Shown piece by piece: positions 19,694 through 60,695 of a stretch of 64,000 nt of DNA (positions within the stretch are counted from its first letter, which is position 1; every line of letters begins with the position of its first letter). Where the stretch lies: positions 6,137 to 70,136 of the IMG/VR virus record IMGVR_UViG_3300036851_000385. One strand, written 5' to 3'. The position numbers and the translations under genes are program-made. The notes under the pieces are model-generated. The model searched no databases. It had not been told where the DNA came from and was given only the letters and a program-made list of their open reading frames with translations. Source of the stretch: a virus.

Positions 19694-20125
19694 ATGGGAC
19701 GCAAGAGCAAACTGACCCCCGACACCCAGAAGCGCCTCCTCGACCTCATCCGCGCCGGCGTGCCCAGGAAGCGCGCGGCCGAGGCGTGTGACATCGGCGA
19801 GTCCACGTTCTGGGAGTGGATGGCCGAAAAGCAGAGTTTCCGGAGTGGGGTAGAAAAGGCGTACGGCGAGTGCGTGGCGTCCAAGGTGCTTCGTGTCCGA
19901 AAGGCGGAAGACGGTGCGTGGCAGGCGGCGGCGTGGTGGCTGGAGCGGATGGAATGGCAGGACTTCGGTCGGCGTGATCGCGTGGAGAACACCGGCCCCG
20001 GCGGCGGTCCGATGCAGCACGAGCACGCGGTGGACCTGAAGGCCCTCCCCACCCACGACCTGAAGGAGCTGCGCCGTATGCAGCTCGCGGCAACCAAGAA
20101 CGGCGATGGCAGCGGCGGCGGTTGA
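19694..20125 (+). CDS. terS: Terminase small subunit
   Basis: MGRKSKLTP HTH, WQAAAWWLER motif, directly upstream of TerL. Confidence 0.75.
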   Translation: MGRKSKLTPDTQKRLLDLIRAGVPRKRAAEACDIGESTFWEWMAEKQSFRSGVEKAYGECVASKVLRVRKAEDGAWQAAAWWLERMEWQDFGRRDRVENTGPGGGPMQHEHAVDLKALPTHDLKELRRMQLAATKNGDGSGGG

Positions 20126-26463: not shown

Positions 26464-26510
26464 AGGGAACCGACCGTTCCTGCGATAAACTACTTGCCAA
26501 GGAGAATATC

Positions 26511-26732
26511 ATGCAAGAGTTGATCGCACAGTTGGTCGAGGCGCTGAAGGAGTGGCGAGAGGCGCAGAGGTCCTCCGGAGAAGCGCACAAGGTTTACGAG
26601 GTTGCCGAGAAACGGCGCGAGATCGCCTACCGCCGTGTCGGGGCGCTCCAGATCGAGTTAGGCGCCGAGATCCGTTCCCTCGCCGGATACTCGGCCGAAG
26701 ACATCGCCTCGTATAAGGAGCAGACTCTGTAG
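26511..26732 (+). CDS. Small coiled-coil protein
   Basis: AAGGAG RBS; helical. Confidence 0.6.
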   Translation: MQELIAQLVEALKEWREAQRSSGEAHKVYEVAEKRREIAYRRVGALQIELGAEIRSLAGYSAEDIASYKEQTL

Positions 26733-26888
26733 TCTTTCCGCCGGGCTCGGAGGTAGGAGGTCCCCGGCCGCCTGTCGTCCGACGCGGGTCATGCCCGCCG
26801 CCCGGCATCTAAGGCGGCCTGGGTTCCCTTCACCGCCTTAGAGCACCACATAGCGATGCGTGATTGCTTACTCCTCTCCCTCTAGTGG

Positions 26889-26922
26889 AGCCGCCTCGTC
26901 TGCGACGAGGCGGCTTTCTTTT
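26889..26922 (+). terminator. Intrinsic terminator
   Basis: 12-bp stem AGCCGCCTCGTC/GACGAGGCGGCT followed by TTCTTTT. Confidence 0.75.
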
Positions 26923-26967
26923 CGCCATTTACCCGTTAGCTAACTCCTCAACCGACCGGAGACGCCC

Positions 26968-28011
26968 ATGAGACTTCAGCATAAGTCCTTCCCCACCGTC
27001 GACTTCAAGGTACTCGACGAAGCTCAAGGCCTGGTTGAGGCTTATGTAAGCGTGTTCCATGTAACGGATGCGGCCAACGAGCGCGTCATGCCAGGATTCT
27101 TCTCCAAGAGCCTGGAGACGCGGCTGCCAAAGGTCGTGTTCGCGCACGATTGGAACCGGCCGATCGGCAAGACGATCTCCGGCACAGAGGAGCGGCACGC
27201 TGGAGATTCACGGCTGCCGGTAAATCTCCGGCAGTATGGCGGTCTCTACTGTCTGATGCAGTTGAACCTGGACGTTCAGGACGGCAAGGACACTCTCTCG
27301 CACCTCCGTTTTGGTTCCCTTGATGAATTCAGCTTCGGCTATGACGTGACGCGCGCCACGAACGCGAAGGACGGCGTCCGCGAGCTGCACGAGGGGACCA
27401 CCTACGAGGTTTCTCCGGTGCTCGTCGGCTGCAATCCGGCCACGCAACTTGTAGGCGTGAAGGACCTGCCGGCAGACCTCTTCGATGTGCCGCAGTCTCT
27501 CGCCGATCTTTGCGCCGTCTCCGATGCCCTCTACGCGAGCAAGCTCTGCTCCATCCTCTTTGAAGGACACCACAGCGACGAGGAGCGCTCACAGCAACTC
27601 GAAGCCGCCTTCTCCGAATTCCACCAGGCCGGCGTGGCCTCTCTGAAGGCCCTGATGAACGCCGCGGGAGACGAGGACGCCAGGGCCGATCTGGAAGCCG
27701 AGTACAAGCAGATTTTCTCCGTGCCGGCGCGCACTGCCGGCCGGTTCGACGCACAGCTCCTCGCTCTGCTTACAGAGGTCGAGGGCGCAAAGACACGGGC
27801 TGAAGGCTTGATCGCGATCCGCAAGGAGCAGGGACGCCTGCCCTTCTCACCGGAGCGCCGCGAGCAACTCAAAGCCCTCTCCGAGGCACTCATCCGCCTC
27901 GTCGAGATCACGGCGCCGACGCCCCCTCTCGACCTCACCCTCTTGCAGATGAAAGCGAGCGCCCGGCGCCGTCGACTATTGGCGCTGGGCGATGGAGCCA
28001 TTCCCTCATGA
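26968..28011 (+). CDS. HK97-family prohead protease with C-terminal extension
   Basis: VEAYVSVF, FAHDWNRPIG, EFSFGY, YEVSPVLVGCN. Confidence 0.9.
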   Translation: MRLQHKSFPTVDFKVLDEAQGLVEAYVSVFHVTDAANERVMPGFFSKSLETRLPKVVFAHDWNRPIGKTISGTEERHAGDSRLPVNLRQYGGLYCLMQLNLDVQDGKDTLSHLRFGSLDEFSFGYDVTRATNAKDGVRELHEGTTYEVSPVLVGCNPATQLVGVKDLPADLFDVPQSLADLCAVSDALYASKLCSILFEGHHSDEERSQQLEAAFSEFHQAGVASLKALMNAAGDEDARADLEAEYKQIFSVPARTAGRFDAQLLALLTEVEGAKTRAEGLIAIRKEQGRLPFSPERREQLKALSEALIRLVEITAPTPPLDLTLLQMKASARRRRLLALGDGAIPS

Positions 28012-29402
28012 ACCCACGATTGAAGGAGCTGCTCGAGACCCTGCGCGCGAAGCAGGCCGAGCAGGATCTTCTCCTGGCAAAACAAGAGCCGCTCTCCGAA
28101 GAGGAAGCCGCTCGTGTCAAAGCCCTGGAAGCCGAACTCTCCAGCCTGGAGGCCGACATCGCCCAGGCCAAAGAGTTCGCCGACATCGAGCAGAAGGCCG
28201 CCCAGCGGCGCGCCCTCGTGACCGTGCCCGTCACCTCCCTCCCGCACCCTTCCGGCAATCCTGACGCCCCGGCCGCGAAGGCGTGGGCGCTCCCCCGGAT
28301 GGGCAAGGCGCGCTACTTCAAGGACGATCCCCACGGTACCCCGGACTGGCGCAGCGCCGAAGAGAAAGCCTATGGCTTTGGCTGCTGGATCGCCGCCACG
28401 CTCGGGAAGAGCAGACGAGCGGCGCAGTGGTGCGACGATAACGGCATTGGCTACAAGGCGCAGCAGGAAGCCGTCAACGAGGATGGGGGGTTCATCGTGG
28501 CCCCTCAGTTTGAACAAACGCTCATCGACCTCCGGGAGACCTACGGCGTCTTTCGACAGTACGCCAACAACTGGCCGATGGGGACCGATCAGCTCTTCAT
28601 CCCCCGGCGCGAGGGGGGCGTCACCGCCTACTGGGTCGCGGAAGGCGCATCCATCACCGAGTCCGATCCGGCATGGGGGCAGGTCGGCCTCGTCGCCAAG
28701 AAGCTCGCGGCCAATTCCCGGATGAGTTCGGAGTTGTCCGAGGACGCCTTCATCAACGTCGGCGACCACACGGCCAATGAGATCGCCTATGCCTTTTCGA
28801 TCTCCGAGGACGATGCGGGCTGGAACGGCGACGGCACCGACACCCACGGCGGCATCACCGGCGTTCTGGTGAAGCTCCTGAACCTCTCGGCAACACGCGC
28901 GAACATCGCCGGTCTGGTCGTCGGATCCGGCAACCTCTGGAGCGAGCTGGATCTCGTGGACTTCCACGCAGTCATCGGCAGGCTTCCGGTTTACGCGAGG
29001 AACAACCGCGCTCGCTGGTTTTGCTCCGCGCCCTTCTATCACACCGTGATGGAGCGGCTCATGTTCGAGGCGGGTGGCGTGACCGCCGCGGAGGTCCGCG
29101 CCGGCGCACTCACCCCCAACTTCCTCGGCTTTCCCGTCGTGCTCTCGCAGAAGATGCCGATGGTGGAGGCGAACGACGCCATTCCCGTGGTGCTCGGCGT
29201 GCTCGACATGGCGGCGGCGTTTGGCGATCGGCGGATGACCACCATCCGCTTCTCCGAACACATTTACTTCAACTCCGACCAGATCGGTATCCGAGGGACC
29301 GAGCGGCTGGATATCAACGTACATGATTTAGGAAACGTGTCCGCAACGGCGTCTCTGCGCGTGCCCGGCCCCGTCGTCGGCCTGGCGACTGCGGCGAGCT
29401 GA
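28008..29402 (+). CDS. Major capsid protein (HK97 fold)
   Basis: N-terminal coiled-coil delta domain, DGGFIVAPQF, AYWVAEG, KKLAA, SSELSEDA, RGTERLD. Confidence 0.95.
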   Translation: MNPRLKELLETLRAKQAEQDLLLAKQEPLSEEEAARVKALEAELSSLEADIAQAKEFADIEQKAAQRRALVTVPVTSLPHPSGNPDAPAAKAWALPRMGKARYFKDDPHGTPDWRSAEEKAYGFGCWIAATLGKSRRAAQWCDDNGIGYKAQQEAVNEDGGFIVAPQFEQTLIDLRETYGVFRQYANNWPMGTDQLFIPRREGGVTAYWVAEGASITESDPAWGQVGLVAKKLAANSRMSSELSEDAFINVGDHTANEIAYAFSISEDDAGWNGDGTDTHGGITGVLVKLLNLSATRANIAGLVVGSGNLWSELDLVDFHAVIGRLPVYARNNRARWFCSAPFYHTVMERLMFEAGGVTAAEVRAGALTPNFLGFPVVLSQKMPMVEANDAIPVVLGVLDMAAAFGDRRMTTIRFSEHIYFNSDQIGIRGTERLDINVHDLGNVSATASLRVPGPVVGLATAAS

Positions 29403-29415
29403 TAGGAGGCCCCTC

Positions 29416-29856
29416 ATGATCATGACTCAAGGCCTGAAGTTCCAGCAGGTGCTCGCGCCGATCAGCATCAACGGGACGGCCGCGACCACGCTCTCGATCG
29501 ACACCAAGGGGTACGATCATCTCGACGTGGTGGTTCAGTTCGGCGTCGTCGGCGCGGCGGCGTTTGACGCCTTCGCGCTCCAATCCAGCAACACCGACGC
29601 CAGTTACGCCGCCGTGACCGGACTCACCGCCTCCGGCTCGACCGGGGCGAACCGACTCCCCCAGGCGACCGACGACGCGAAGATGGCGCATTTCGGCGTG
29701 AACCTGATGGGCCACAAGCGGTTCTTCTCCCTCGTGGCCGATCCCGGCGCCGTCGATTGTCTCGTCTCGGCGGTTGCGGTCCTCTCGCGCGGCGAAGAGA
29801 CCCCCAACTCGATGGCCGATCGCGGCTTCGACATCGAGTTCCTGCTGCCGGCATAG
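29416..29856 (+). CDS. Putative capsid decoration protein
   Basis: Directly after MCP; SIDTKGYD...LQSS...KRFF beta-sandwich pattern; AGGAGG RBS. Confidence 0.6.
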   Translation: MIMTQGLKFQQVLAPISINGTAATTLSIDTKGYDHLDVVVQFGVVGAAAFDAFALQSSNTDASYAAVTGLTASGSTGANRLPQATDDAKMAHFGVNLMGHKRFFSLVADPGAVDCLVSAVAVLSRGEETPNSMADRGFDIEFLLPA

Positions 29857-29873
29857 AAAGCAGACGCGGAAAG

Positions 29874-29974
29874 CAGACGCCAGACGCCAGACGCCAGACG
29901 CCAGTAGGGAGAGACTGCCGGTATACGGGCACTCCCGCCTTTACTGGCGTCTGGCGTCTTACGTCTGGCGTCTG
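29874..29974. repeat. (CAGACGC)n palindromic element, copy 1
   Basis: (CAGACGC)4 CAGT, core, ACTG (GCGTCTG)~4. Confidence 0.9.
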
Positions 29975-29989
29975 GGAGCGATAGCGACC

Positions 29990-30187
29990 ATGGCACACAC
30001 CTTCAAAGACGGCGACGCGGTGGAGGTTCCGGGCTACGGCTCCGGCACCGTCTACGATGTCGGGCAGGATGCAAACGAACACGCCGTGCGCGTGAAACTG
30101 GACGACGGCCGCGGCTCCGTGCGCGTGGACGTTCGGAACCTGAAGAAGGCGGTTCAGGATAAGGCGGTGCGCGGCCCCCGCGAGTAG
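29990..30187 (+). CDS. Small SH3/KOW-like protein
   Basis: FKDGDAVEVPGYGSGTV...VRVKLDDG; tail DKAVRGPRE. Confidence 0.6.
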   Translation: MAHTFKDGDAVEVPGYGSGTVYDVGQDANEHAVRVKLDDGRGSVRVDVRNLKKAVQDKAVRGPRE

Positions 30188-30204
30188 GACAGAAAGGCAG
30201 TTTA

Positions 30205-30295
30205 CAGACGCCAGACGCCAGACGCCAGTGGGGAAGGGAGGGACTGCCGGCAGTCCCGCCTTCACTGGCGTCTGGCGTCTGGCGTCTGGCGTCTG
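30205..30295. repeat. (CAGACGC)n palindromic element, copy 2
   Basis: (CAGACGC)3 CAGT, core, ACTG (GCGTCTG)4. Confidence 0.9.
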
Positions 30296-30323
30296 CTGTG
30301 CGCGCCTGGAGGCGTAGCCGACC

Positions 30324-30653
30324 ATGAGCTACCAGAAGACATTGATGCAAGACGCGGCCGGAGCTACTGGGAACGGCACGACGATGGGAGTCAAAGAGCG
30401 CGGCGGCGCGATCCACTTCGAGAATATCGGCTCGCCGGTGGGCACGGTCACATTCGAGGGGGCGTTGAACGCTGCGGAGGACGCCTTCATTGCCGTGCCG
30501 CTGGAGACGGCGACCGGAACGCTGGTGACCTCGACCACGACGCCGGGGTACTTCCGGCTGCCCTTGAACCACGGCCTGGCGGTCGTCCGCGCGCGTATCT
30601 CGGCGTTCACCAGCGGTGCTTTTTCGATCCACGGCGCGACCACGAGGCGATAG
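30324..30653 (+). CDS. Putative virion protein (beta-sandwich)
   Basis: GTVTFEG...VRARISAFTSG. Confidence 0.6.
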   Translation: MSYQKTLMQDAAGATGNGTTMGVKERGGAIHFENIGSPVGTVTFEGALNAAEDAFIAVPLETATGTLVTSTTTPGYFRLPLNHGLAVVRARISAFTSGAFSIHGATTRR

Positions 30654-30658
30654 CGACC

Positions 30659-31567
30659 ATGCTCAAGCTACCGAGTGAGCTTGTCATCCACAACACCTAT
30701 ATCGAGTTCGATAACCCGTCGGGGAAGACGTTTGGGGTGGCGCCGGCCGGAAAGGTGCGGATGCACGCAAACTCGGCGGGGACGGCGGTCCTTCAGTCGA
30801 TCTCCGGGTCGGCTTACGGAGCGGTAGGCGCCGCCCCCATGCTCCTTACCGCATTAGTCGCGAGTGAGGTGCCCCTCACCATCCAGGCGCACACGTCGCA
30901 GTCGGCGGATATGTTCGTCGCAAAAGCCGTCGGCAACAACAACGGGTTTCGCGTCCAGAAGGGCACGGGCGACAACTTTTACCCGGCGGCCTACGGCGAC
31001 GACAACGATAAGGTTTTTGCCGCACACAACACCTCGGCGAGTGACGCCGAGCAGTTCGTGATTCTCCAGGAGAGCGCGGATACGACGTTCCGCAACATGC
31101 GGGGCGTGACGAACTTCAATCGGTCGGGAGCGTTTGAAACGACGCTCAACGTGAAGGCCACCGCAGGCCAGTCGTCCTCCCTTCAGCTTGTCAGCGGCAC
31201 CCTCGGCACCGGCCAGGCGATCCTGCGCTTCGTGGAAGCGACGACCTCCCAGTGGCAGATTTACAAGATCGGGAGCGACGCGAATCTCTACTTCCGCGAT
31301 ACGGTCAACGGCCGCATGATCCTGACGATGGGACAGGGCGCCTCCGCTGCCGCCACGCTCTGTACCTTCGACAGCCGCGTGAAAACTCTGGGACGGCTCT
31401 ACATGAACACGCCGGCCGATGCGCCGACCGACGGCGACCTCTCCAACAATTCGGCATCCGTCTGGATCGACGAGGCAACGCCCGCCGTCAAGATGCGGAT
31501 CCGCAAGACCGACGGCACCTATCTGACGCTCACGATCACCAACGGCGCTTCTCCGACCCTGGCCTAA
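30659..31567 (+). CDS. Putative fibre/spike protein
   Basis: Ser/Thr/Gly-rich beta composition within structural operon. Confidence 0.55.
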   Translation: MLKLPSELVIHNTYIEFDNPSGKTFGVAPAGKVRMHANSAGTAVLQSISGSAYGAVGAAPMLLTALVASEVPLTIQAHTSQSADMFVAKAVGNNNGFRVQKGTGDNFYPAAYGDDNDKVFAAHNTSASDAEQFVILQESADTTFRNMRGVTNFNRSGAFETTLNVKATAGQSSSLQLVSGTLGTGQAILRFVEATTSQWQIYKIGSDANLYFRDTVNGRMILTMGQGASAAATLCTFDSRVKTLGRLYMNTPADAPTDGDLSNNSASVWIDEATPAVKMRIRKTDGTYLTLTITNGASPTLA

Positions 31568-31574
31568 CCTTTCG

Positions 31575-31808
31575 ATGAACGAACTCCTGGCGACTGCCGC
31601 CGAGCCTGTCCAGCTTGGCGAGCCGGATCTCGCCTATTACCTCGCCCTTCGCGCCCGCCTGGACGAGGCAAAGGCGCAGGTCGCTCTCTGGCAGCAGGCA
31701 CTCGAGGCGATCGTTCCCGTCCTGGCCGCGCGCCACGGCATCGAAGGGCACCTCCTGATCGATTCGGCCGGCTTCTATACGACGGCGCCCGAGGAAGACG
31801 ACGGCTGA
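31575..31808 (+). CDS. Small helical protein, possible fibre chaperone
   Basis: Coupled ORF between fibre genes. Confidence 0.5.
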   Translation: MNELLATAAEPVQLGEPDLAYYLALRARLDEAKAQVALWQQALEAIVPVLAARHGIEGHLLIDSAGFYTTAPEEDDG

Positions 31809-33319
31809 TGACGAGGGTTATTGCCCAGGATGAACTCTGGATCCGCTCCGGCAAGATCCGGTTTTCGGGTGGATCGGGTCCGCGTGGCGTGGCCCCCTCG
31901 GACGGGGCCGATCTGATCTACGATCCCACGCGGGGGGCGCTGGTCCTCTCCGTCGATGGGCGGCCCTATCGCCCGGTGGGAACCGCGCTGGTCTCCGACG
32001 TGCAGGCGGATTTTGGCGCGAAAGGTGACGGAAGAACGGTTACCGACGGCGCAATGACCTCCGGCTCGGCCGTGGTCACCTCGGCCACCGCAGCGTTCAC
32101 AGCAGCGGACGTTGGCAAGTTCATCAGCGTCCGAGGGGCGAACACGGCGGTGGGCGGGGAGACGCTCGTCGGCACGATCGCGACCTACATCTCCGCCACG
32201 CAGGTAACGGCATCGATCGCCGCCAACGCCACCGTCTCCTCAAAGCGCGTCGTCTGGGGCACGATCGATACTCTCGCCATCCAGGCGGCGCTGGACGCGG
32301 TAGCGGCCGCGCGGCGCGGCGTGGTGTACCTGCCTGTCGGTATCTACCTGATCGACGCGCAGCTTTTGCTCTCCGGCGTCTCCGACGACGATCCGATCCG
32401 GGGAGCGACCGTGTGCGGAGAGAAAGGGGCAACGCTCTGGGCGGCGGATGTCAATATCCCGTACACGGGAGGGGTGACCGGGAGCCTCCTGGCCTCGATC
32501 TACGCCGAGGACGTGACCTTTCGTGATCTGATTTTCCAGGGAACGGGCACGGGCTTTACCGGCCCCCGGCTCTGCGCGCTGCGGATGACCGGCAAGGGGC
32601 TGAACACCGTCTATCACAATCTGACCTTCAACGATTTCAAGGGGGCCATCCCGCTTGACTACTCCGGCACCCAGCGCGCGGTGATCGACACCTGCTACGT
32701 GGACGCCTGCGACTACGGCATCGTTCAGAGCAACCTCGACGGCTCGGCGTCGATCGTGAATTGCCAGGTGACGAACCCAAGCCAGGCGGATACCCTCGTG
32801 CCCGGCATCTGCGTCTCCGGGCGCGATAACCGGATCTCGAAGAACTACATCGAGACGCCGGCCGAAACGTTTTCCATCTGGATCGGCGACACCAGCCAGG
32901 ACGCCTGTGTGATCGGCAACACGATCAAGGGACCGGGGACGACCACCTCGTCGGGCATCCGCATCCACGCCGATACCGGGGGGGATTGCGTGATCATGGG
33001 CAACCAGATCGACGGCTGCGGGACCGCGATCGTCTTAAACGGCACCTCGATCACGGTGACCGGCAACCAGATCCGGGGCGGGGGCGTGGGTTATACCGGG
33101 ATCGCCACCTTCTACGACGGCAACCCCGCATCCGAGGTCTCCATCACCGGCAACGCCTTCGCCAACTGTGCCAAGGGCATCGACGGCGGCACGCTGGCTT
33201 CCGGCTACGTGACCGTCACCGGCAACATCTTCCCTGCCAGCGTGACCGACCCCATCGCGGGCGAGGGCTCATGGACCAACTCGAAAGGCGTCGGGAACGC
33301 GGGCCTGGCGGACTTCTAG
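31808..33319 (+). CDS. Pectate-lyase-like beta-helix spike (putative depolymerase)
   Basis: DFGAKGDG, DTLAIQAALDA, VVYLPVGIY, repeated IxGN rungs. Confidence 0.8.
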   Translation: MTRVIAQDELWIRSGKIRFSGGSGPRGVAPSDGADLIYDPTRGALVLSVDGRPYRPVGTALVSDVQADFGAKGDGRTVTDGAMTSGSAVVTSATAAFTAADVGKFISVRGANTAVGGETLVGTIATYISATQVTASIAANATVSSKRVVWGTIDTLAIQAALDAVAAARRGVVYLPVGIYLIDAQLLLSGVSDDDPIRGATVCGEKGATLWAADVNIPYTGGVTGSLLASIYAEDVTFRDLIFQGTGTGFTGPRLCALRMTGKGLNTVYHNLTFNDFKGAIPLDYSGTQRAVIDTCYVDACDYGIVQSNLDGSASIVNCQVTNPSQADTLVPGICVSGRDNRISKNYIETPAETFSIWIGDTSQDACVIGNTIKGPGTTTSSGIRIHADTGGDCVIMGNQIDGCGTAIVLNGTSITVTGNQIRGGGVGYTGIATFYDGNPASEVSITGNAFANCAKGIDGGTLASGYVTVTGNIFPASVTDPIAGEGSWTNSKGVGNAGLADF

Positions 33320-33351
33320 AGGCAGGCAAAAAGCGCCGGAGCGCAGCGGCC

Positions 33352-33606
33352 ATGACATTTACGATCACGGGGACGATCACCCGGTGCGCCGGGCTCAACC
33401 ACTACCAGGTGCCGGTGGAGCTGGGCAACGGGGTCACGGGCACCCTCCACATCATGAAAAGCGAGCTGGAGTATGAGCCGGCATCGGACCTGATCGAGAC
33501 GCGGGAGCGGATGGTGGCGCGGATGGTCTCCGCGGGCAAGGAATTGAACGCCGTGACCTTTGCCCAGTGGCGCACGGCCCTGGAGTTGAAGACGTTCAAG
33601 CTTTAG
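33352..33606 (+). CDS. Hypothetical protein
   Basis: MTFTITGTITRC..., 84 aa in operon. Confidence 0.6.
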   Translation: MTFTITGTITRCAGLNHYQVPVELGNGVTGTLHIMKSELEYEPASDLIETRERMVARMVSAGKELNAVTFAQWRTALELKTFKL

Positions 33607-33610
33607 GAGG

Positions 33611-33712
33611 CAGACGCCAGACGCCAGACGCCAGACGCCAGTAAAGGCGGGACTGCCGGGAGACGGGCACTCCCTCCCCAACTGGCGTCTGGCGTCTGGC
33701 GTCTGGCGTCTG
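33611..33712. repeat. (CAGACGC)n palindromic element, copy 3
   Basis: (CAGACGC)4 CAGT, core, ACTG (GCGTCTG)4. Confidence 0.9.
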
Positions 33713-33727
33713 GGCGCGTAGCGACCT

Positions 33728-34756
33728 ATGGCCTACCAGAATGAGAGCTTCTGCCAGTATCCGTGGCTGGACCTTCCCACGTCGAACCTGACCGTGCTGA
33801 CGCTGGATGCTTCGGGAGAGAAGGCGGCAGGCGTCTTCCGGGTAGCGAAGACGGGATCGATACAGAAGATCCACTTCTTGCTCTCGACGGTGACGACGGG
33901 ACAGACGCTGAAAGCCTCGCTTCAGGATGTGGATCTGGCGACGGGGGATCCGGACGGAACGATTGACCAGTCGGGGACGGTCGCGGTCGCCGATGGGGAC
34001 GATAACACATGGAAGACAGTGACGCTTGGGGCTGTCCGTGCGGTTTCGCGAGGCGATCAGTTGTCGGTCGTCTTTGAGTTCGATGCGACCATTGGGAACC
34101 TGCAGATTGTCTCGGGGAGCGCGATTCCGGTCATGAATGTCTACACGGACCTTTATACGGGGACGTGGGCCAAGCAGGCACGGTGTCCGCTTTTCATTCT
34201 GGAGTATGACGATGCGTCGATTGTGCCGATCCCAGGTGTCCTCTATGGTCTGGGCACGTCGCTCGACTTCAATTCCGGCTCGGCCGCGGACGAGGTGGCG
34301 CTGCGCTTCTCGCTGCCCTTTCCGGTGAGAGTGATGGGGCTCGGGCTGTATGGCCGGGTGTCGGGTGATGTCGATCTGGTGCTTTACTCAGGTACCACGG
34401 CGCTTGCCACGACCTCCCTGGACAAGGAGGTGCGTCAAACGTCGACGGACGGCATGAACGTTGGCCTGTTCTCTGCGGCCCAGGAATGTGCGAAGGATAC
34501 GGTCTACCGGGCGGCGGTCAAGCCCACATCGGCAACGAGCGCGAGGGTCATTTATAACGATGTGTCTATCGCTGCCCATCTGGACGCGGCGCCGGGCGGT
34601 CGGGAGCTGCACTATTCGAGCCGGGTGGACGGGGGCGCCTGGAGCGATACCACCACGCGGCGCCCCTCGATCGTGCTCCTGATCGAAGGGTTCGATGACG
34701 GCGTGAGTGCCGGGGGTCTGATCGGCGCCGGCAGCATTCGCGGGGGCTTCCAGTAG
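33728..34756 (+). CDS. Putative virion protein with two beta-sandwich domains
   Basis: 342 aa beta-rich ORF in structural operon. Confidence 0.6.
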   Translation: MAYQNESFCQYPWLDLPTSNLTVLTLDASGEKAAGVFRVAKTGSIQKIHFLLSTVTTGQTLKASLQDVDLATGDPDGTIDQSGTVAVADGDDNTWKTVTLGAVRAVSRGDQLSVVFEFDATIGNLQIVSGSAIPVMNVYTDLYTGTWAKQARCPLFILEYDDASIVPIPGVLYGLGTSLDFNSGSAADEVALRFSLPFPVRVMGLGLYGRVSGDVDLVLYSGTTALATTSLDKEVRQTSTDGMNVGLFSAAQECAKDTVYRAAVKPTSATSARVIYNDVSIAAHLDAAPGGRELHYSSRVDGGAWSDTTTRRPSIVLLIEGFDDGVSAGGLIGAGSIRGGFQ

Positions 34757-34759
34757 CTG

Positions 34760-36769
34760 ATGGATTCCATCTTCAAAGGCTCCACGGATGTCACGCTTTA
34801 CTTCGTGCTCGTCGATTCCACGACCGGTCTTCCGGAAACCGGAGTCGCGCACACGTCGGTTACCGGGAGCTACGTCCGGAACCGGGGGACGCGTACCGCG
34901 ATCAGCATGGTGAACCTCGCGGCGCCGGACTCCGCGCATTCCGACGGCGGTTGGGAGGAAGTCGACAGCACCAATCAGCCGGGGCTTTACCGGTTCGACA
35001 TCCCAGACGCGGCCTTTGCAACCGGCGCCGATAAGGTGATCGTCTCCGTGGTCGTCACCGGCGTGAAGACGGAGCACCAGCTCATCCCGCTCTCCGACTG
35101 GAACACGCAGGTAGCGGCGATCCCAAACGCCGCGGCAGCCGCCGCGGGGGGCCTCTTCACCCGCGGCACCGGGGCGGGGCAGATCAACCAGGCGGCGGAT
35201 GGGATGATCGATGTGAGCGTCGTGCGCCTGGCAAACGTCGCGCAGAGCTTGACCGATCTCAAGGATTTCGCCGACGACGGATACGACCCCATCACGAACA
35301 AGGTGCAGGGGGTGGTGCTCACGGACACCCTTACGACCTACACCGGGAACACCCCACAGACGGGAGATTCCTTCGCGCGCCTGGGCGCTCCGGCAGGCGC
35401 TTCCGTCTCAGCCGACATCGCGGCCATCGAAGGCCAGACCGACGACATCGGGGCGGCGGGCGCGGGCCTCACGGCCGTTCCCTGGAACGCGGCGTGGGAC
35501 GCGGAGGTAGAGAGCGAGGTCGCGGATGCCCTCGCTGCCTATGACGCCGCGACCGGAGGCGACGTCACCACTGCCGCTGCCTCCGTCACCGTCACCGGTA
35601 TTGCCACCAATACGATCGGCTCGGGGGCGCTGGATCAGACCGCGATCACCGAGATCCGATCGCTCTTTTCCGGGACCGCCGACTCGGGCACGACGACGAG
35701 CCTGACGGATGCGGATTTGAACCAGGTCGACGCGGACTTCTGGAAGGGGCAGATCCTTCTCATCACGTCGGGGAGTACGATCAACCAGTCGCGCACGATC
35801 ACCGGCTTCAACCCGGCGACGGACACTCTGACCGTCGACCGCGCCTTCACGCAGGCGATAACCACCAACACCTACGAGATCCTTCCCGCAGGGGCGGCGC
35901 TTGTGGCCGCGGATGCCGTGACAGAGATCCAGGCCGGGCTGGCCACCGCCGCGGCGGTGGCCACGGTGCAGGCGGATACCGACGACATCCAGACACGCCT
36001 CCCGGCCGCCCTCGTCTCCGGTCGGATCGACGCGAGCGTGGGAGCCGCCGCGGCGAACACGATCACGGCATCTGCGCTCGCCACCGATGCCGTCACTGAG
36101 ATCCAGGCAGCCGTGGCGGCGGGCTCCGTGGCCTCGGTGACCGGCTCAGTCGGCTCAGTGGTCGCAGGTGTCACGCTCGCCGCCTCGGCCGTCCAGGCGA
36201 TCTGGGACGCGCTCACTTCGGCGCTCACGACCGCCGGCTCGATCGGCAAGCTCCTCGTCGACAACATCAACGCCACGATCAGCAGCCGCCTGGCCACCGC
36301 TGGCTACACCGCGCCGCCCACGGCCGCGGCGAACGCCGATGCCGTGTGGGATGAGACCCTCGCCGACCACCTGACGGCGGGGTCGACCGGCTCGGCATTG
36401 AACGCGGCAGGCTCCGCCGGTGATCCGTGGAACACCGCCCTTCCCGGCGCCTACGGGGCAGGGACGGCCGGCAAGATCGTCGGGGACAACATCAACGCCA
36501 CGGTCAGCTCGCGCGCCACGCCCGCCCAGGTGAACGCCGAGGTGCTCGACGTGCTGACCGTCGATACCTTCGCCGAACCTCTGGCGATACCGGATGCGAC
36601 TTCGAGCCTGAAGGACAAGCTTTCGATGCTCTTCATGGCGCTTCGCAACAAGGTGCGGCAAACGGAGACCGCCCAGGAAATCTGGAACGACGCCGAGGAT
36701 ACGCCGGTAGCGACAGCCACGGTGTCCGACACGGGCGACGAAACGGTCCGGAGCAAGTTCGAGAGCTAA
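34760..36769 (+). CDS. Ala/Thr-rich repeat fibre protein
   Basis: PGLYRFDIPDAAF N-domain; repeats DAVTEIQA and GKxxxDNINATxSSR. Confidence 0.7.
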   Translation: MDSIFKGSTDVTLYFVLVDSTTGLPETGVAHTSVTGSYVRNRGTRTAISMVNLAAPDSAHSDGGWEEVDSTNQPGLYRFDIPDAAFATGADKVIVSVVVTGVKTEHQLIPLSDWNTQVAAIPNAAAAAAGGLFTRGTGAGQINQAADGMIDVSVVRLANVAQSLTDLKDFADDGYDPITNKVQGVVLTDTLTTYTGNTPQTGDSFARLGAPAGASVSADIAAIEGQTDDIGAAGAGLTAVPWNAAWDAEVESEVADALAAYDAATGGDVTTAAASVTVTGIATNTIGSGALDQTAITEIRSLFSGTADSGTTTSLTDADLNQVDADFWKGQILLITSGSTINQSRTITGFNPATDTLTVDRAFTQAITTNTYEILPAGAALVAADAVTEIQAGLATAAAVATVQADTDDIQTRLPAALVSGRIDASVGAAAANTITASALATDAVTEIQAAVAAGSVASVTGSVGSVVAGVTLAASAVQAIWDALTSALTTAGSIGKLLVDNINATISSRLATAGYTAPPTAAANADAVWDETLADHLTAGSTGSALNAAGSAGDPWNTALPGAYGAGTAGKIVGDNINATVSSRATPAQVNAEVLDVLTVDTFAEPLAIPDATSSLKDKLSMLFMALRNKVRQTETAQEIWNDAEDTPVATATVSDTGDETVRSKFES

Positions 36770-36775
36770 TGAAGA

Positions 36776-36869
36776 CAGACGCCAGACGCCAGACGCCAGA
36801 CGCCAGTGAAGGAGGGACTGCCGGGAGACGGGCACTCCCTCCCCACTGGCGTCTGGCGTCTGGCGTCTG
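36776..36869. repeat. (CAGACGC)n palindromic element, copy 4
   Basis: (CAGACGC)4 CAGT, core, ACTG (GCGTCTG)3. Confidence 0.9.
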
Positions 36870-36881
36870 GGAACTGCCCTG

Positions 36882-37145
36882 ATGGCACTCGACACACAGA
36901 ACCGGCGTATGGCCGCACTCGGCGCGAGCCTTCTCTTTCGCGTCGTGCCCCCCGTACCGGACAATACGATCGGACCCCTCGACCGGCTGCAGCTTCTCGC
37001 GCTCTTCCGATTCGGCCTTGAGGCGGGTGGCGGCGGCGGGGAGGGCGAAGGCGTCGTGAACCCGATCGGCATCTTGCTCACGACGATGAATCCGATCGGC
37101 GTGCTCTTTGAAGACACCCTCCAGCCCATCGGAATAATTGAATGA
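36882..37145 (+). CDS. Putative virion protein
   Basis: MALDTQNRRMAA...PDNTIGPLDR. Confidence 0.6.
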   Translation: MALDTQNRRMAALGASLLFRVVPPVPDNTIGPLDRLQLLALFRFGLEAGGGGGEGEGVVNPIGILLTTMNPIGVLFEDTLQPIGIIE

Positions 37146-37513
37146 TCCCTCGCTATTCCCTGGAACTCACGCACAAGGCGCAGAACCAGTTCCGGTTCAA
37201 TGTCACGCGCGCAGGGATCGCCGAGGACCTCTCGACGTGGAGCAACCTGTGGTTTGCGGCAAAAAGGCGGGCAACCGATCCGGATGACCGGGTGATCTTC
37301 GAGAAGGTGCTCTTTGCCGGCGTAGAGATCATCGACGCGCCTACCGGATTGGTCGAGGTGACGCTTGAGCCGACTGACGGCGACGACCTCACGGAAGGCT
37401 CCCGCTACAACCTCCACGGCGATGTGGGCGGCACGGACGGCGACCTCAAGGTGTGGCAGTTGTTCACGCTGGCAATCACGCTCTATCCGCGCATCCGCCG
37501 GAGTAGCTTCTAG
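37142..37513 (+). CDS. BppU-N-like Ig-fold virion protein
   Basis: DLSTWSNLWFAAKR...IIDAPTGLVEVTLEPTD. Confidence 0.55.
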   Translation: MIPRYSLELTHKAQNQFRFNVTRAGIAEDLSTWSNLWFAAKRRATDPDDRVIFEKVLFAGVEIIDAPTGLVEVTLEPTDGDDLTEGSRYNLHGDVGGTDGDLKVWQLFTLAITLYPRIRRSSF

Positions 37514-38214
37514 TGTCGAAGCCCGAGTACCCCAGCGGCGCGGATGTCGAGCAGGTCATCGAGGGCCTGCGACTGTTCGACGTGGCCGACCTCGCCGAAG
37601 TGTTCGAGTTCATCGACACGGACGCCCTGGCGCTCGCCGCCGTCCACCAGTGGGAGACCGAGACCGGCTGGATCCCGTTCCTCGCCGACGTGGACGACGA
37701 CAACCCGGATCAGACGCGCTACTTCGATCCGCCCGGCCCAAATTCCCGCGGCGAAAGCATAGGCGGCGGCAACCACCTGATCCTCGACTGCGGCATCGTG
37801 GAACTCGTCACCGTACATACCGGTTGGTCTCCCACGTTTGCCGGCACGGCGGCCCTCGCCGGCACCGACTTTCGCCTCTGGCCATACAACGCGGACCCCC
37901 TCGATCGTCCGTGGACGGAGCTTCGGTTCAAAGTGCCCCAGTGGGGGCAGCCGCAGTCCATCAAGATCGTGGGGAGGTTCGGGTATGCGGCGACCGTGCG
38001 GGAGGACGTGTGGTTGGCGATCCTCCATCAGGGGGTGACGCTCGCGCTGCCGGAGGTGGCGACGAGGGTTACGGGGGGCATGGTCGAATGGAAAGAAGCC
38101 GATGCCTCCGAGCGGTACGGCGAGGCGTTCCTCTTCGGCGATAAGGGCGTGGGGAGTGCCTGGGGCCTTGAATGGTCTCGGACTGTGAATCGCTACCGCC
38201 GCGTGGTGATCTGA
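37513..38214 (+). CDS. Head-tail adaptor
   Basis: TRYFD...QSIKIVGRFGYAATVREDVWLAIL...YRRV. Confidence 0.65.
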   Translation: MSKPEYPSGADVEQVIEGLRLFDVADLAEVFEFIDTDALALAAVHQWETETGWIPFLADVDDDNPDQTRYFDPPGPNSRGESIGGGNHLILDCGIVELVTVHTGWSPTFAGTAALAGTDFRLWPYNADPLDRPWTELRFKVPQWGQPQSIKIVGRFGYAATVREDVWLAILHQGVTLALPEVATRVTGGMVEWKEADASERYGEAFLFGDKGVGSAWGLEWSRTVNRYRRVVI

Positions 38215-38636
38215 TGGCGTTGACCCCAAGACAGCGGATCCTCTACACGCACCGCGCGAACCTCTGGGCCAACACGCGCGCGAAGGACGCGCAGGGGCGG
38301 ATCACCGGCCATAGCTGGGCGCTCGTCGCCTCCAACATCCCTTGCTATTTCGTCTTTCGGCAGAGCACCGAAGCCCCCTCCGTGGCCGGAGGACTGGAGG
38401 CAGACAATTTTTTCAGCCGGGATGAAATCCACGTCGACGGAACGCTCGCGATCGACTCCGATATGGTGCTGAAGAACGTTACCCTTGACGCAGACGGCAG
38501 TCAAAGCGCGGCGTACGGGCGTTTCTGGGTTGTCGCCGGCCAGCCGCAGGCGGTGAGTAACCAGGGGCGGCGCAAGGCCCGCATGAAGGTCGTTCAGGCT
38601 GTCCAGATCGAGACGCCTCCGGTAGGGGTGAGCTGA
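38214..38636 (+). CDS. Head closure (stopper) protein
   Basis: Synteny after adaptor; beta-rich 140 aa. Confidence 0.55.
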   Translation: MALTPRQRILYTHRANLWANTRAKDAQGRITGHSWALVASNIPCYFVFRQSTEAPSVAGGLEADNFFSRDEIHVDGTLAIDSDMVLKNVTLDADGSQSAAYGRFWVVAGQPQAVSNQGRRKARMKVVQAVQIETPPVGVS

Positions 38637-39088
38637 TGGCGTTTGACCTCAATCTCATGATCTCTGAGATCAAGGAGGTCATGGCCGATACCTGGACGGA
38701 CACGGCACCGCCGGCCGGCGGGATCTGGGAAATCGATCAGCTTGCCTCCGTCTCGTTTGAAGAGGTTGGCGGGTTCCCGTACGGCGTGGTCGAGATCCCG
38801 CCGTCGGAAGATGCGGATTGGGGCCTGAGTAACGACGCGCAAGAAGTGGACGCTTCTTTTCACTACGTGGCGCGCGAAGACGCGGACCTCTCCACGCTCC
38901 GCGATCGGCTGGAAGAGCTGAAGTCGGCGCTCTTCGTCGCGACCTTTACCGGAATGAACGTGCTCCGGCGCTCCGGGACCGATTGGAGTGCGCGCCATCC
39001 GGCGAACCAGATCTTCATGGCGAAGAAGGTGCCGTACCGCGCCGGATCGCTGGTGATGCGGCTGAACTTCGGGGAGTCGGCGCTGTAG
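38636..39088 (+). CDS. Tail terminator-like protein
   Basis: FPYGVVEI motif, synteny. Confidence 0.5.
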   Translation: MAFDLNLMISEIKEVMADTWTDTAPPAGGIWEIDQLASVSFEEVGGFPYGVVEIPPSEDADWGLSNDAQEVDASFHYVAREDADLSTLRDRLEELKSALFVATFTGMNVLRRSGTDWSARHPANQIFMAKKVPYRAGSLVMRLNFGESAL

Positions 39089-39616
39089 ATGGGGCCGATC
39101 CTTGGCAGGGCGTTGGTCACTGCGGCAACGCAGGCGCTGCGAACCGCAGGGCGACGACGGATTACCGTGGCGTTCCGGCGGCGGCTCTATCTCAAGCTGG
39201 CCCAGGGTGTCGCGAAGAAAGCGCAGCAGCTTGATCGCGGCGTCAGGGAAGCGGAAGCCAAGAGCGCGGATGAGGCCCTTCGGATCGCTCGGGAACTCTC
39301 GTCCGGGCGCTTCTCCTTGGCACAACTGGCCCGGATGGGCCATCCCTACAGAATCGGCGGCGTGCCTCCGCAAGACGCCGCGATCGTGAACAAGCAAACA
39401 GGCGCTTTCTATCGCGGCTGGAGAGTCATCGGTCCTCGACAGCGCGGTGGCGATCTGGCGACAAAGTTGGTCAATGATTCCCCCCAGGCCGAGCGATTAA
39501 GCCGGGGCACCTCCCGAATGATTGCAAGACCTATCCTCACGCGCATCCGCGAGCGCGTCGAGGGCAAACGGCGCGCTCTCTACAAGGCTTCGATCCGCAA
39601 GGCACTTCGCTCCTAA
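39089..39616 (+). CDS. HK97 gp10-like tail completion protein
   Basis: VNKQTGAFYRGW...GTSRMIARPIL; basic. Confidence 0.65.
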   Translation: MGPILGRALVTAATQALRTAGRRRITVAFRRRLYLKLAQGVAKKAQQLDRGVREAEAKSADEALRIARELSSGRFSLAQLARMGHPYRIGGVPPQDAAIVNKQTGAFYRGWRVIGPRQRGGDLATKLVNDSPQAERLSRGTSRMIARPILTRIRERVEGKRRALYKASIRKALRS

Positions 39617-39622
39617 ACCACC

Positions 39623-40141
39623 ATGGCGATCCCTAACTGGCTGCTGGGCCGTCACGTTACGGCCGTACAGGCGCACGTCCAGACCTTAAACGAGTCGACG
39701 GGAGCGCTTGCCGACGTGACAACGCCAACCGCGAACGACCTGGCGAACGTCGTGCTGACGACCGGCTCCCATTCCTCCGGCACCATCGCCTTCACGACCG
39801 GGCTCTTGAACGACATTCGCCTTGTGTCGGACAAGGAGTCGGACAACATTGCCTCCGTCAACATGACGACTGCGCACCACGTAGGAATCAAAGTCGGGTA
39901 TACGATCACCTGCTCCGAAGTGCTCCGCTCCACCGCCGCCGCCTGCCTTCTTGCCAACATCTGGCACAACGGAACCAGCCGATACATTCGCTTTGACTAC
40001 GCCCGCGGCGGCAACAAATGGCGGGACTGGTACCTGATGGTTTCCTACTCCGAGACGACTGTTCGCGGAAAGAACGTCGGGACCATGACCCTTCAAAGCG
40101 TCGACAACGGCGGCGGCACCTACACCGCCGCTGACCGGTAA
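39623..40141 (+). CDS. Putative tail tube protein 1
   Basis: Synteny before chaperone; paralogous to next gene. Confidence 0.55.
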   Translation: MAIPNWLLGRHVTAVQAHVQTLNESTGALADVTTPTANDLANVVLTTGSHSSGTIAFTTGLLNDIRLVSDKESDNIASVNMTTAHHVGIKVGYTITCSEVLRSTAAACLLANIWHNGTSRYIRFDYARGGNKWRDWYLMVSYSETTVRGKNVGTMTLQSVDNGGGTYTAADR

Positions 40142-40148
40142 CGCGGCA

Positions 40149-40607
40149 ATGGCAACCATTCCCCTCTGGCTGATCGGGCGCAACGTGACCTCTGTCGTCA
40201 TCACTCCCCTGGTGGCCGATTCTGCCGGGCTCCTCTCGGCGGCGGCCCTCGGCGCCCAGACGGTGACGGCGATCGTGGATGAGATCCAGTACTCCGGTGC
40301 GACGACCACCCAGGAGATTTCAGCCCTCACTTCGCGCAGGCGCAATGAAGTACCCCTCGAACGCGACGACCAGCTCGTTTTTACGGAAATCTGTCGGAGC
40401 GCTGCCGGATCGGTCATCGCCGCCGCGATCTGGACGGCGGCCGATCTGCCTGATTGGGCGTTGTTCCAGGCGACCCGTGGCGGCAACTCCGTGGCTTTTT
40501 ACGGACTTGCCACCCGGTACGAAGAAGACGTTCAGAAGGGGAAGAGTGTGGCGCGGATCACCCTCCGGATCGTAAACGCCGCCGTCACCAATCCCGCCTA
40601 CACCTGA
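40149..40607 (+). CDS. Putative tail tube protein 2 (paralog)
   Basis: MATIPLWLIGRNVTSV versus MAIPNWLLGRHVTAV; RGGN conserved. Confidence 0.55.
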   Translation: MATIPLWLIGRNVTSVVITPLVADSAGLLSAAALGAQTVTAIVDEIQYSGATTTQEISALTSRRRNEVPLERDDQLVFTEICRSAAGSVIAAAIWTAADLPDWALFQATRGGNSVAFYGLATRYEEDVQKGKSVARITLRIVNAAVTNPAYT

Positions 40608-40608
40608 T

Positions 40609-41106
40609 ATGCAGAAGATCAACCCTTATGATCTCCCCCGGCCATCGCGGCCTGTGGAAGAGCGAGTCTTCGATGCCGATGGCGTCTCCGTGGTGATCGC
40701 CTTCCGCCGGCCCGACGCCGCCGATATGAACATGGCGGCCGAGGTCGCCAAGCGGCTCACGAAGGACTACATCACCGGCTATCCGGAGGAAGGTACGCCG
40801 CCGGCCGAGTTCTTCGATGGGATCAAGGTCTCCGAAGCGCTCTTCATGCTGGCCGCCACCGGCCAGGAGATGCAGCCGCCGGAAAAGAAGGTCTACACTG
40901 CCGAGGAGTTCGTGATGCTCATGGACCGCCTGGAGACAGACGGCGTTCGCATCGCGCGCTGGATCAACGAGAAGCAGCAGGATTGGCGGCGCCACCAGGG
41001 AAACGGGTCCGGAGCGCCTACGGAGACCTCCTCCGAAGCGCGCTCCGCCTCCACCCCGAGCATCCCGAGATCACCTTCCGCCGCGACCACCTCCTCCGAA
41101 GCCTGA
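40609..41106 (+). CDS. Tail assembly chaperone (G)
   Basis: Precedes tape measure; slippery G GGA AAC at 40998-41004. Confidence 0.7.
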   Translation: MQKINPYDLPRPSRPVEERVFDADGVSVVIAFRRPDAADMNMAAEVAKRLTKDYITGYPEEGTPPAEFFDGIKVSEALFMLAATGQEMQPPEKKVYTAEEFVMLMDRLETDGVRIARWINEKQQDWRRHQGNGSGAPTETSSEARSASTPSIPRSPSAATTSSEA

Positions 41107-60052: not shown

Positions 60053-60294
60053 TCCAGCTCCCCCACCGGATCTCCCGCCTCCCGCGCAGCCAACTGCCGC
60101 CGGATCGCCGCGTGCGCCTCCTGCAGCTCCTCCGGCCACTCCACCCCCGCCGCCCGATGCTTCTCCCGATCCTGGAACAGCTCGTTACTCGCCGCCTCCA
60201 GGTGGTGCCGGTGCCGGGCGCGTGCGGCGACGACAGCCGCCTCATCCGGCAACTGGAACGGATCACACCGCACTGGCTTGGGCTTCTCGGTCAT
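60049..60294 (-). CDS. Hypothetical protein
   Basis: AAGGAG RBS; AAGVEWPEELQEA motif. Confidence 0.55.
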   Translation of the reverse strand: MTEKPKPVRCDPFQLPDEAAVVAARARHRHHLEAASNELFQDREKHRAAGVEWPEELQEAHAAIRRQLAAREAGDPVGELE

Positions 60295-60624: not shown

Positions 60625-60695
60625 GGTAGCCGGCAGCCGGTAGCCGTCAGCCGTGAGATCAGAACCAACGGCTACCGGCTGCCGGCTACCGGCTG
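60625..60695. repeat. Heptamer-arm imperfect palindrome
   Basis: CGKYAGC-like x4-5, then (CGGCTRC)x4. Confidence 0.8.

Follow-up and report, generated by a model that had tools for sequence, protein, structure and literature searches.

To our knowledge, heptamer microsatellites and inverted pairs of such microsatellites are common in several bacterial phyla, and we know of no function that has been shown for them. In many genomes, no class of long simple sequence repeats (SSRs) is more abundant than the heptamers, according to the introduction of PMC4679880 (citing Mrazek 2007). In the sections of Rehm et al. 2015 (PMC4692102) that deal with the Xanthomonas repeats, four units are preferred, the arrays lie between open reading frames (ORFs) that are aligned, and 70-75 convergent pairs are able to form stem-loops. 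Long terminal stems are also described for 23S rRNA intervening sequences (IVSs). PF05635 is the 23S-rRNA-IVS protein family (S23p), and in the IVS with a PF05635-type ORF that is treated in the pertinent part of PMC4990558, a 28-bp terminal stem is cut by RNase III at its middle. In this study we describe five copies of a hairpin element, here called E1 to E5, in a phage genome represented by IMG/VR virus record IMGVR_UViG_3300036851_000385 (70,136 bp; G000, contig C1). The window, that is, the whole stretch of DNA that was analysed, comprises 64,000 nucleotides (positions 6137-70136 of that record). E1 to E5 are hairpins without an ORF, with arms made of the probable host clade's own heptamer and a core that is specific to the phage. 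We consider it highly probable that they belong to the inverted heptamer-array repeat class of the host lineage. A role as RNase III substrates or decay barriers is proposed more tentatively, by analogy with known systems. On balance, we favor the combined statement that these are host-lineage heptamer-array hairpins with an effect on RNA processing or decay.

Five copies of one hairpin element

E1 (29874-29974) consists of (CAGACGC)4, a core that runs GAGACTGCCGG...GGCACTCCC, and (GCGTCTG)4 with two substitutions in this right arm. It lies between the stop codon of a 146-aa gene (29856) and the ATG of a 65-aa gene (29990). In E2 (30205-30295), (CAGACGC)3 and (GCGTCTG)4 enclose a perfectly palindromic core, GGGACTGCCGGCAGTCCC, and the neighbors are the stop codon of the 65-aa gene (30187) and the ATG of a 109-aa gene (30324). 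E3 (33611-33712) has four units in each arm. It begins 4 nt past a stop codon (33606), and 15 nt separate its end from the ATG (33728) of a 342-aa gene. E4 (36776-36869) combines (CAGACGC)4 and (GCGTCTG)3 with a core that is the same as that of E3, and is placed between the stop codon of a 669-aa gene (36769) and the ATG of an 87-aa gene (36882). No strand is assigned to any of the elements. A first-pass annotation of this DNA had reported these four elements of 91-102 nt, and each was recovered at the position it gave. Its account of the arms holds as well, whereas the core of E1 reads GAGACTGCCGG and not GGGACTGCCGG, as had been claimed. It had further suspected a fifth copy beginning at 63987. 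A 127-bp terminal repeat closes the 70,136-bp record into a circle, so that the sequence begun by the 14 nt at 63987-64000 runs on into a complete fifth copy, E5 (G000 114-211, with the remainder at G000 128-211). Both neighbors of E5 are on the - strand: a sigma-70-like gene that ends at G000 226 and has regions 2 and 4 present, and the next gene, with its ATG near window position 63916. Within a - strand ORF, at G000 1441-1468, there is also a half-element: (GCGTCTG)x4 whose partner arm is missing.

The abundance of this repeat is far from what would be expected by chance. Allowing up to one mismatch, CAGACGCCAGACGC has 23 matches in the window versus 0.06 expected, and none of 100 shuffles reached 23. 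When the five copies were aligned, mean column identity was 88%, with identical arms of 24-31 nt; the arms comprise 21-28 nt plus CAGT, and the cores 35-45 nt. The five copies look like the outcome of a recent spread within the phage genome. Predicted RNA folds for E1 to E4 are -81.5, -84.5, -96.1 and -89.5 kcal/mol (z -9.9 to -12.8), values equaled by none of 200 shuffles, and the predicted fold of E5 is -94 kcal/mol (z -13.1). Stems have 24-31 perfect pairs, with predicted folds of -77 to -96 kcal/mol. No usable covariation was present among the five copies, the arms being invariant and a double change occurring in only 1 of 42 pairs.

The elements are confined to the gaps between cistrons of co-directional operons, with four copies in the late structural operon and the fifth in an operon of the - strand, after the sigma-factor gene. 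From a stop codon to the start of E1 to E4 the distance is 4-18 nt, and from their end to the following ATG it is 12-28 nt, in line with the first-pass estimate of about 30 nt. Between the + strand ORFs from 26968 to 41106 there are four gaps of more than 15 nt, and the elements occupy every one of them. All five copies separate co-directional genes, and the place near 58495 where + and - genes converge is without an element. The 5′ half-core GGGACTGCCGG points along local transcription in all four informative copies, including E5 on the - strand. The spacers that separate E1, E2 and E3 from the start codon following each (29975-29989, 30296-30323 and 33713-33727) share the motif GG(A/C)GCG(A)TAGC(C)GACC, which is absent at the matching sites of the phage relative L080 (see below); the repeated unit may thus include its own ribosome-binding stretch.

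Searches for known signals in and around the elements were negative. Rfam models gave no match in the whole window at gathering thresholds. As the first-pass annotation had noted, none of the elements is followed by a T-tail, defined as 5 or more T within 8 nt of the sense strand. No direct repeat common to the left and right flanks, as expected of a target-site duplication, was present in any of the five copies. A promoter scan of 26500-38500 with a sigma-70-type consensus only returned two sites, the same number as in shuffled sequence, and neither adjoins an element.

Period 7 and further heptamer hairpins in the phage

Exact tandem repeats of at least three units, sought at periods 5-11, occur at period 7 only, with 12 arrays in the phage and 21 on a 320-kb contig (C1) of the candidate host genome G001, which is described below. 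A tolerant scan of periods 4-12 gave the same picture: 13 arrays at period 7 versus 0-1 at any other period in the phage, and 21 versus 0-5 on the host contig. At least five more hairpins with arms of other heptamers were found in the phage, some of them within ORFs. The hairpin at 6047-6117 (strand unassigned; units GCGCCGA/GCACCAG) has a 31-bp perfect stem, its predicted fold is -88 kcal/mol (z -11.1), and an open - frame (5367-6395) contains it. At 9437-9513 (+), the right arm is (CCAGGAG)4 and the hairpin is inside a + ORF (9235-10092). At 9640-9730 (+), (GAGCGCC)2.7 is paired with (TGCTCGG)5 through five G.U pairs, which form on the sense strand only, and the + strand is predicted to be 11 kcal/mol more stable. 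The hairpin at 60625-60690 (strand unassigned; GGTAGCC/GGCAGCC) has a 23-bp perfect stem, and a weaker one at 3398-3460 (strand unassigned), with (AGCCGTG)3-4 facing ACCGGCT-type units, is inside an endolysin-like ORF (2868-3755). The phage thus carries a broader class of hairpins, of which E1 to E4 stand out most.

Arrays within apparent coding sequence, in the + ORF at 9235-10092 and in a - ORF beyond the window at G000 1131-1547, are predicted to encode low-complexity linkers, e.g. ...QDARRQTPDGS.... The former ORF also has a weak match to HTH_17, under the Pfam cut-off. Host arrays that fall inside ORFs are similar in look to these.

The same heptamer in a candidate host clade

A strict version of the hairpin pattern was found in only one contig among 185,579 species genomes. 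This contig, with two hairpins in 8 kb, belongs to a metagenome-assembled genome (MAG) of an uncultured member of the Acidimicrobiia (G001, 2.8 Mb). G001 has 139 matches to the double heptamer, spread over all its listed contigs, and the reversed control has none. Further, (CAGACGC)3 occurs in five of 41 relatives of G001, with 72, 22, 3, 39 and 50 matches. GC content is 64.6% in the phage and 63.8% in the host contig. On contig C1 of G001 the arrays are mostly single. Of 18, 14 consist of four units and 13 fall between genes according to crude gene calls based on GC3. Full hairpins are formed at five of the six CAGACGC loci of the phage; the 320-kb host contig has 16 loci, and only about three of them are paired. 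The polarity CAGACGC...GCGTCTG holds for all pairs (5/5 in the host sequence examined and 5/5 in the phage).

In G001, Pfam matches to nuoD, H, I, J, K and L mark the nuo operon. Two of its gaps, D-H and I-J, contain (GCGTCTG)4-5, and a compact hairpin of CAGACGC units sits between nuoK and nuoL. In the orthologous operon of G004 the D-H array is retained. G006 has (AGACGCC)5 in the H-I gap, which is 6 nt long in G001, and its I-J, J-K and K-L gaps contain arrays built of other units. The K-L gap of G003 is 19 nt long, and the nuo operon of G005 has no arrays. Each lineage seems to have its own heptamer set. G006 and G003 also carry AAGTCGG, GGAAGAC, ACGCACC and CTGCCTA arrays, and the reversed control (CGCAGAC)3 has five matches in G010, a relative of G001 without (CAGACGC)3.

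In viral contigs, (CAGACGC)3 occurs at six loci, every one a single array and in unrelated viruses, and the exact hairpin pattern has no match. A 16-mer from the core matched 14 loci in the same contigs, all of them chance coding matches and none with heptamer arms.

Relatives of the phage

Among IMG/VR viral contigs, the only relative of the major capsid protein (MCP) was in L077, at 41% identity. L077 has no such hairpins, shares only the portal, the MCP and the 146-aa protein with the phage, and has a 454-aa gene directly 3′ of its 144-aa gene. Metagenome contigs yielded three short contigs with an MCP relative, of which L080 (2.5 kb) is the only one that extends past the MCP gene. L080 was compared with the window by direct reading and by BLAST. 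Gene order is unchanged, and the end of the MCP is 86% identical to that of the window. Identity is 87% for the 146-aa protein, 49% for the 65-aa protein (76 aa in L080) and 67% for the 109-aa protein. For the 302-aa protein (30659-31567), whose counterpart in L080 has at least 357 aa (1491-2561), it is 40%, over the N-terminal ~90 residues only.

The two intergenic sites that L080 covers differ from those of the window. At the E1 site, L080 has 8 nt between stop codon and ATG. At the E2 site it has a hairpin of CGTGGGG, CGTTGGG and CGTGAGG units (-70 kcal/mol, z -6.0), followed by an extra ORF of 57 aa. At the nucleotide level, homology extends up to the stop codon that precedes E1 (window 29856) and begins again at 30398. 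Taken together, these comparisons show rapid gain, loss and replacement of the elements between relatives. In a search of 301 Acidimicrobiia genomes, the L080 heptamer gave single matches in five, so that it provides no host signal for L080. L080 also has two small tandem ORFs (678-908 and 991-1162) with RV-rich, beta-like motifs and a heptamer hairpin between them. Their counterpart in the window is one gene, that of the 65-aa protein, flanked by E1 and E2.

PF05635, the 23S rRNA gene and RNase III

PF05635 was found in all four host-clade genomes searched and had no match in the phage. In the host clade, inverted heptamer arrays stand on either side of four of six PF05635 loci, within about 110 nt, and at one of these the arms are made of AGACGCT/AGACGCC units. 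Of the remaining two loci, one is a broken copy in G001 with an (AGACGCC) array on a single side, and the other has none adjacent. The inner flanks of the bracketing elements are unlike the core of the phage elements. RNase III (PF14622) is encoded by one gene in each of the four host-clade genomes (in G001 at C11:161488-161865) and has no match in the phage.

The 23S rRNA gene of G001 (L121 1501-5264, contig C16) is 3764 nt long, compared with the 2925 positions of the model. It contains an insertion of about 840 nt, with an ORF at L121 3783-4115. This gene was considered as the home of a heptamer-armed IVS and was ruled out, as it has neither heptamer arrays nor long inverted repeats (no period-7 array and no inverted repeat of at least 16 nt).

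Genes around the elements

Gene identities were assigned with PHROGs and Pfam. The terminase large subunit (20106-21518), the portal (22419-23828), the prohead protease (26968-28011) and the MCP (28008-29402) are followed by the 146-aa phrog_5707 protein (29416-29856), directly before E1. From there the order is E1, the 65-aa gene, E2, genes for proteins of 109, 302, 77 and 503 aa, a small ORF ending at 33606, and E3; the 342-aa and 669-aa genes and E4 come next. The first-pass annotation had called this a fibre/spike region. This is borne out in part: the 503-aa protein (31808-33319) has matches to NosD and to the pectin-lyase and tail-spike families. For the 342-aa protein, similarity to viral clusters labelled DUF4082 or lectin-like is treated as a lead only, and no relative of it was found among viral contigs. 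Likewise a lead only is the resemblance of the 669-aa protein to viral hypothetical proteins. The ten proteins after E4 had no informative PHROG match, so that the head-tail adaptor named in the first-pass annotation is a putative one.

A weak N-terminal motif of about 53 residues (E 0.029) is common to the 302-aa and 503-aa proteins. The sequences of these two proteins and of the 357-aa or longer protein of L080 suggest that the N-terminus is conserved while the C-terminal parts are exchanged, a fibre-like pattern. Within the 669-aa gene, a direct repeat of 51 nt (36233-36283 and 36458-36508) has 80% identity. Another direct repeat, of 109 nt, is located at 59807-59915 and 60052-60160 (76% identity, 245 nt apart). 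The phage also carries two DNA methyltransferase-like genes, at 18273-19481 (with a ParB-like N-terminal part) and at 60827-63028.

Discussion

Our analysis indicates that the four elements between the late genes of this phage, and the fifth that closes over the ends of the record, belong to an inverted heptamer-array repeat class that is also scattered over the chromosomes of a narrow Acidimicrobiia clade. The first-pass annotation had offered two readings, either boundaries of cassettes for exchanging receptor-binding modules or long double-stranded RNA (dsRNA) processing stems, and had reasoned that three things together would point to an ordinary repeat: many copies in the host, relatives that keep their gene order with and without the elements, and no junction reads or transcript ends at the elements. 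The first two were found, one as the 139 matches in G001 and the arrays in five of its 41 relatives, the other in L080. The elements are therefore better described as an ordinary host-lineage repeat, like short tandemly repeated repetitive (STRR) or repetitive extragenic palindromic (REP) sequences, than as a phage-specific cassette system. The dsRNA processing stem survives as our preferred mechanism, by analogy with systems in which such stems are cut.

According to this mechanism, the elements would be transcribed within polycistronic mRNA, where each would fold into a hairpin of about 40 bp, and the 28-bp perfect lower stem would act as a substrate of host RNase III, as a barrier to exonucleases, or as both. 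The late transcript would then be cut into segments for protease-MCP-146aa, 65aa, 109aa to the ORF ending at 33606, 342aa-669aa and the downstream genes, and these segments could differ in stability. We regard any such effect as a consequence of carrying the repeat that the phage possibly exploits, not as a purpose-built system. Several observations favor an effect at the level of RNA, namely the IVS precedent, the hairpin in the nuo operon and the orientation of the half-core with transcription. The G.U pairs of the hairpin at 9640-9730, which form on the sense strand only, also count for it, as do the bracketed PF05635 loci and the RNase III gene of each of the four host-clade genomes.

Nevertheless, a number of points weigh against this explanation. 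E1 is dispensable, because L080 has only 8 nt at that site, and the two substitutions in its right arm are uncompensated. At orthologous gaps of the host, arrays are freely gained, lost and changed. Such turnover fits neutral or selfish change as well as function, and since a different unit in the same gap is normal for this repeat class, the hairpin at the E2 site of L080 is not good evidence of a hairpin conserved by selection. E1 to E5 have equal predicted stability on both strands, with no G.U asymmetry, and their arms are invariant, so that a role in RNA is not separable from one in DNA. Cleavage and the resulting transcript ends are steps that we infer from analogous systems. The assignment of the phage to a narrow Acidimicrobiia clade is probable, given the shared repeat and the GC content, which are the two lines of evidence for it. 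No MCP relative was found in the 41 relatives of G001. In five host-clade genomes the phage core plus array had one match at three mismatches, the same as the reversed control, and no donor element was identified. Finally, as the 23S rRNA gene of G001 is without heptamer arrays, the elements are linked to IVSs by architecture only and not by location.

Among the other explanations, the one closest to ours accepts the identity of the elements and denies them a function. They would be selfish or mutational by-products, arising by 7-nt slippage and inverted duplication or from a mobile IVP-related element, that survive where they are harmless and have a negligible effect on RNA. Much of the evidence just listed agrees with this, including the absence of E1 from L080 (despite 86% MCP identity and the same gene order), the coming and going of arrays of differing units at the nuo gaps of G001, G003, G004, G005 and G006, the arrays and hairpins within ORFs, and the uncompensated changes in the arm of E1. 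Heptamer SSRs are, moreover, treated as slippage-prone in the introduction of PMC4679880 (citing Mrazek 2007). By-products would not obviously be full hairpins at five of six phage loci when about three of 16 are paired on the host contig, nor would their cores follow transcription in all four informative copies. General enzymology adds that RNase III is unlikely to ignore 40 bp of perfect dsRNA within an mRNA, as these hairpins are predicted to form. We consider an explanation without function unlikely, while giving it more credence than the three that follow. In one of them, the copies serve as portable homology for deleting, duplicating or swapping blocks (the 65-aa gene, 30324-33606 and 33728-36769), for which the stem-loop cassettes of T4-type phages known as PeSLs are a precedent, to go by what PMC2839356 states about them. 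The copies would be suited to this, with 88% column identity and identical arms of 24-31 nt. Homology with L080 breaks at the E1 and E2 sites, the proteins along this stretch are 87% (146 aa), 49% (65/76 aa) and 67% (109 aa) identical, and the extra 57-aa ORF lies by the L080 hairpin. These breakpoints lend weak support to the first-pass cassette reading. They come from a single relative of 2.5 kb that covers the E1 and E2 sites only, and mosaic breakpoints of phages usually fall at gene boundaries with or without repeats. A search of sequencing runs located this DNA in one DNA run, probably that of the source sample, and in no RNA run. In the contigs of the DNA run, the E1-E2 block has a depth of 29.9 versus 37.6 and 39.1 for its neighbors, although contig depth does not amount to a measurement. 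The same contigs break at every element and none joins one element to another, although contigs cannot exclude rare junctions. There is no promoter consensus adjoining the stems. As in the first-pass annotation, no recombinase was found, here among 40 scanned proteins of the ~95 predicted (a scan that was not exhaustive), and the transposase family PF01797 had no match in any of the five genomes searched. We judge recombination joints improbable as the explanation of these elements.

Termination and effects at the DNA level are less probable still. Intrinsic terminators or attenuators without a U-tract could lower transcription past the capsid genes. The hairpins are indeed very stable, GC-rich and directly 3′ of stop codons, and E1 follows the MCP and 146-aa genes, whose products are needed in the highest amounts. 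However, no copy is followed by a T-tail, virion-essential genes lie downstream of all four late copies, and mycobacterial RNA polymerase did not terminate at hairpins lacking a U-tract in the in vitro experiments concerned in PMC3993855. A similar hairpin is present between nuoK and nuoL, and a hairpin within an essential operon cannot be a strong terminator, so that we think termination very unlikely. Even less do we expect the elements to act as DNA, through a cruciform, a two-tetrad G-quadruplex (G4) of (GGCGTCT)4 or the binding of a heptamer-recognizing factor. Four units do supply four GG tracts, the statements on GGGNATC repeats in PMC4692102 tie the preference for four units to G4 formation, and the heptamer is common to the phage and the host clade. 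The tracts are GG only, however, and a G4 has to compete with pairing to the C-rich arm of the hairpin. Units unrelated to this heptamer form hairpins in the phage and in L080 as well, which argues against a sequence-specific binder.

A broader proposal can be made, which we offer as speculation and think improbable. The elements could be a transferable class tied to the gene for the PF05635 four-helix-bundle protein, crossing between an Acidimicrobiia chromosome and its phage and used in the phage both as RNase III-dependent punctuation, setting capsid-to-fibre stoichiometry, and as portable homology for receptor-binding modules. Returning to our favored explanation, host-lineage hairpins with an effect on RNA, three consequences make it worth pursuing. 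Five near-identical copies in a 70-kb phage offer a small, clean system for studying RNase III cutting, the expression of neighboring genes and the spread of the repeat. The lineage-restricted heptamer shared by the phage and a narrow Acidimicrobiia clade is a host prediction for an uncultured soil phage and a useful host marker. Lastly, this repeat class is not confined to chromosomes.

Comparison with known systems

REP elements are known as intercistronic stabilizers of mRNA. Like REPs, the REPINs associated with RAYT transposases and MITEs (miniature inverted-repeat transposable elements), E1 to E5 are intergenic, imperfect palindromes of about 100 nt that occur in many copies and form long hairpins. 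They differ from REP/REPIN elements in having arms of tandem heptamers instead of a fixed REP sequence, and from MITEs in having no target-site duplication in their flanks. The Y1/RAYT transposase family PF01797 had no match in the phage, G001, G002, G004 or G006, in a search whose control matched six of 14 reference genomes.

The early mRNA of phage T7 has RNase III processing sites that are conserved, bulged and specific to the phage. E1 to E5 are like these sites in being intercistronic hairpins of a phage polycistronic transcript that would, by analogy, be cut by a host enzyme. They differ in being perfect microsatellite stems that are turned over between close relatives. The PeSL cassettes, as presented in the relevant text of Arbiol et al. 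2010 (PMC2839356), are also repeated stem-loops between phage genes, beside which relatives differ. In contrast, E1 to E5 have neither an attached sigma-70-type promoter nor a T-tail, their arms are microsatellites of the host type, and the contigs revealed no mini-circle or junction.

The IVSs of 23S rRNA, in the features reported by the corresponding part of Warrier et al. 2016 (PMC4990558), resemble E1 to E5 in having terminal inverted repeats and a stem of about 28 bp. Arms of heptamers like those of the phage elements bracket four of the six PF05635 loci of the host clade, one of them with AGACGCY units. The phage copies are distinguished by having no ORF and by their location between protein genes and not in rRNA.

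The closest counterparts are the paired heptameric SSRs, which include GGGAATC of Xanthomonas and GGGGAYT of Nostoc (PMC4692102), the cyanobacterial STRRs and TAACTGA (MacGregor 2015, PMC4679880). To the extent that these sources describe them, they share with E1 to E5 the 7-nt head-to-tail units, their restriction to a lineage and dispersal over a genome, as well as arrays of about four units, a location mostly between co-directional ORFs and frequent convergent pairs that can form stem-loops. The present unit, GGCGTCT, has a GG tract only and falls short of the three or more Gs required for the G4 type, to which it consequently does not belong. E1 to E5 are also found in a phage genome, and the word 'phage' does not appear in the text of PMC4692102 available to us. 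A keyword-level search of open-access text, supplements excluded, found no published description of inverted heptamer-array hairpins in a phage genome. Because the five copies share a core of 35-45 nt, they constitute a true repeat family, unlike SSR pairs, which are independent pairs of arrays. In conclusion, this kind of repeat is already in print, and what is new is that it lies in a phage, that its unit also belongs to a narrow host clade, that the five copies form a family whose core is conserved and that the same arms bracket PF05635 genes in that clade.

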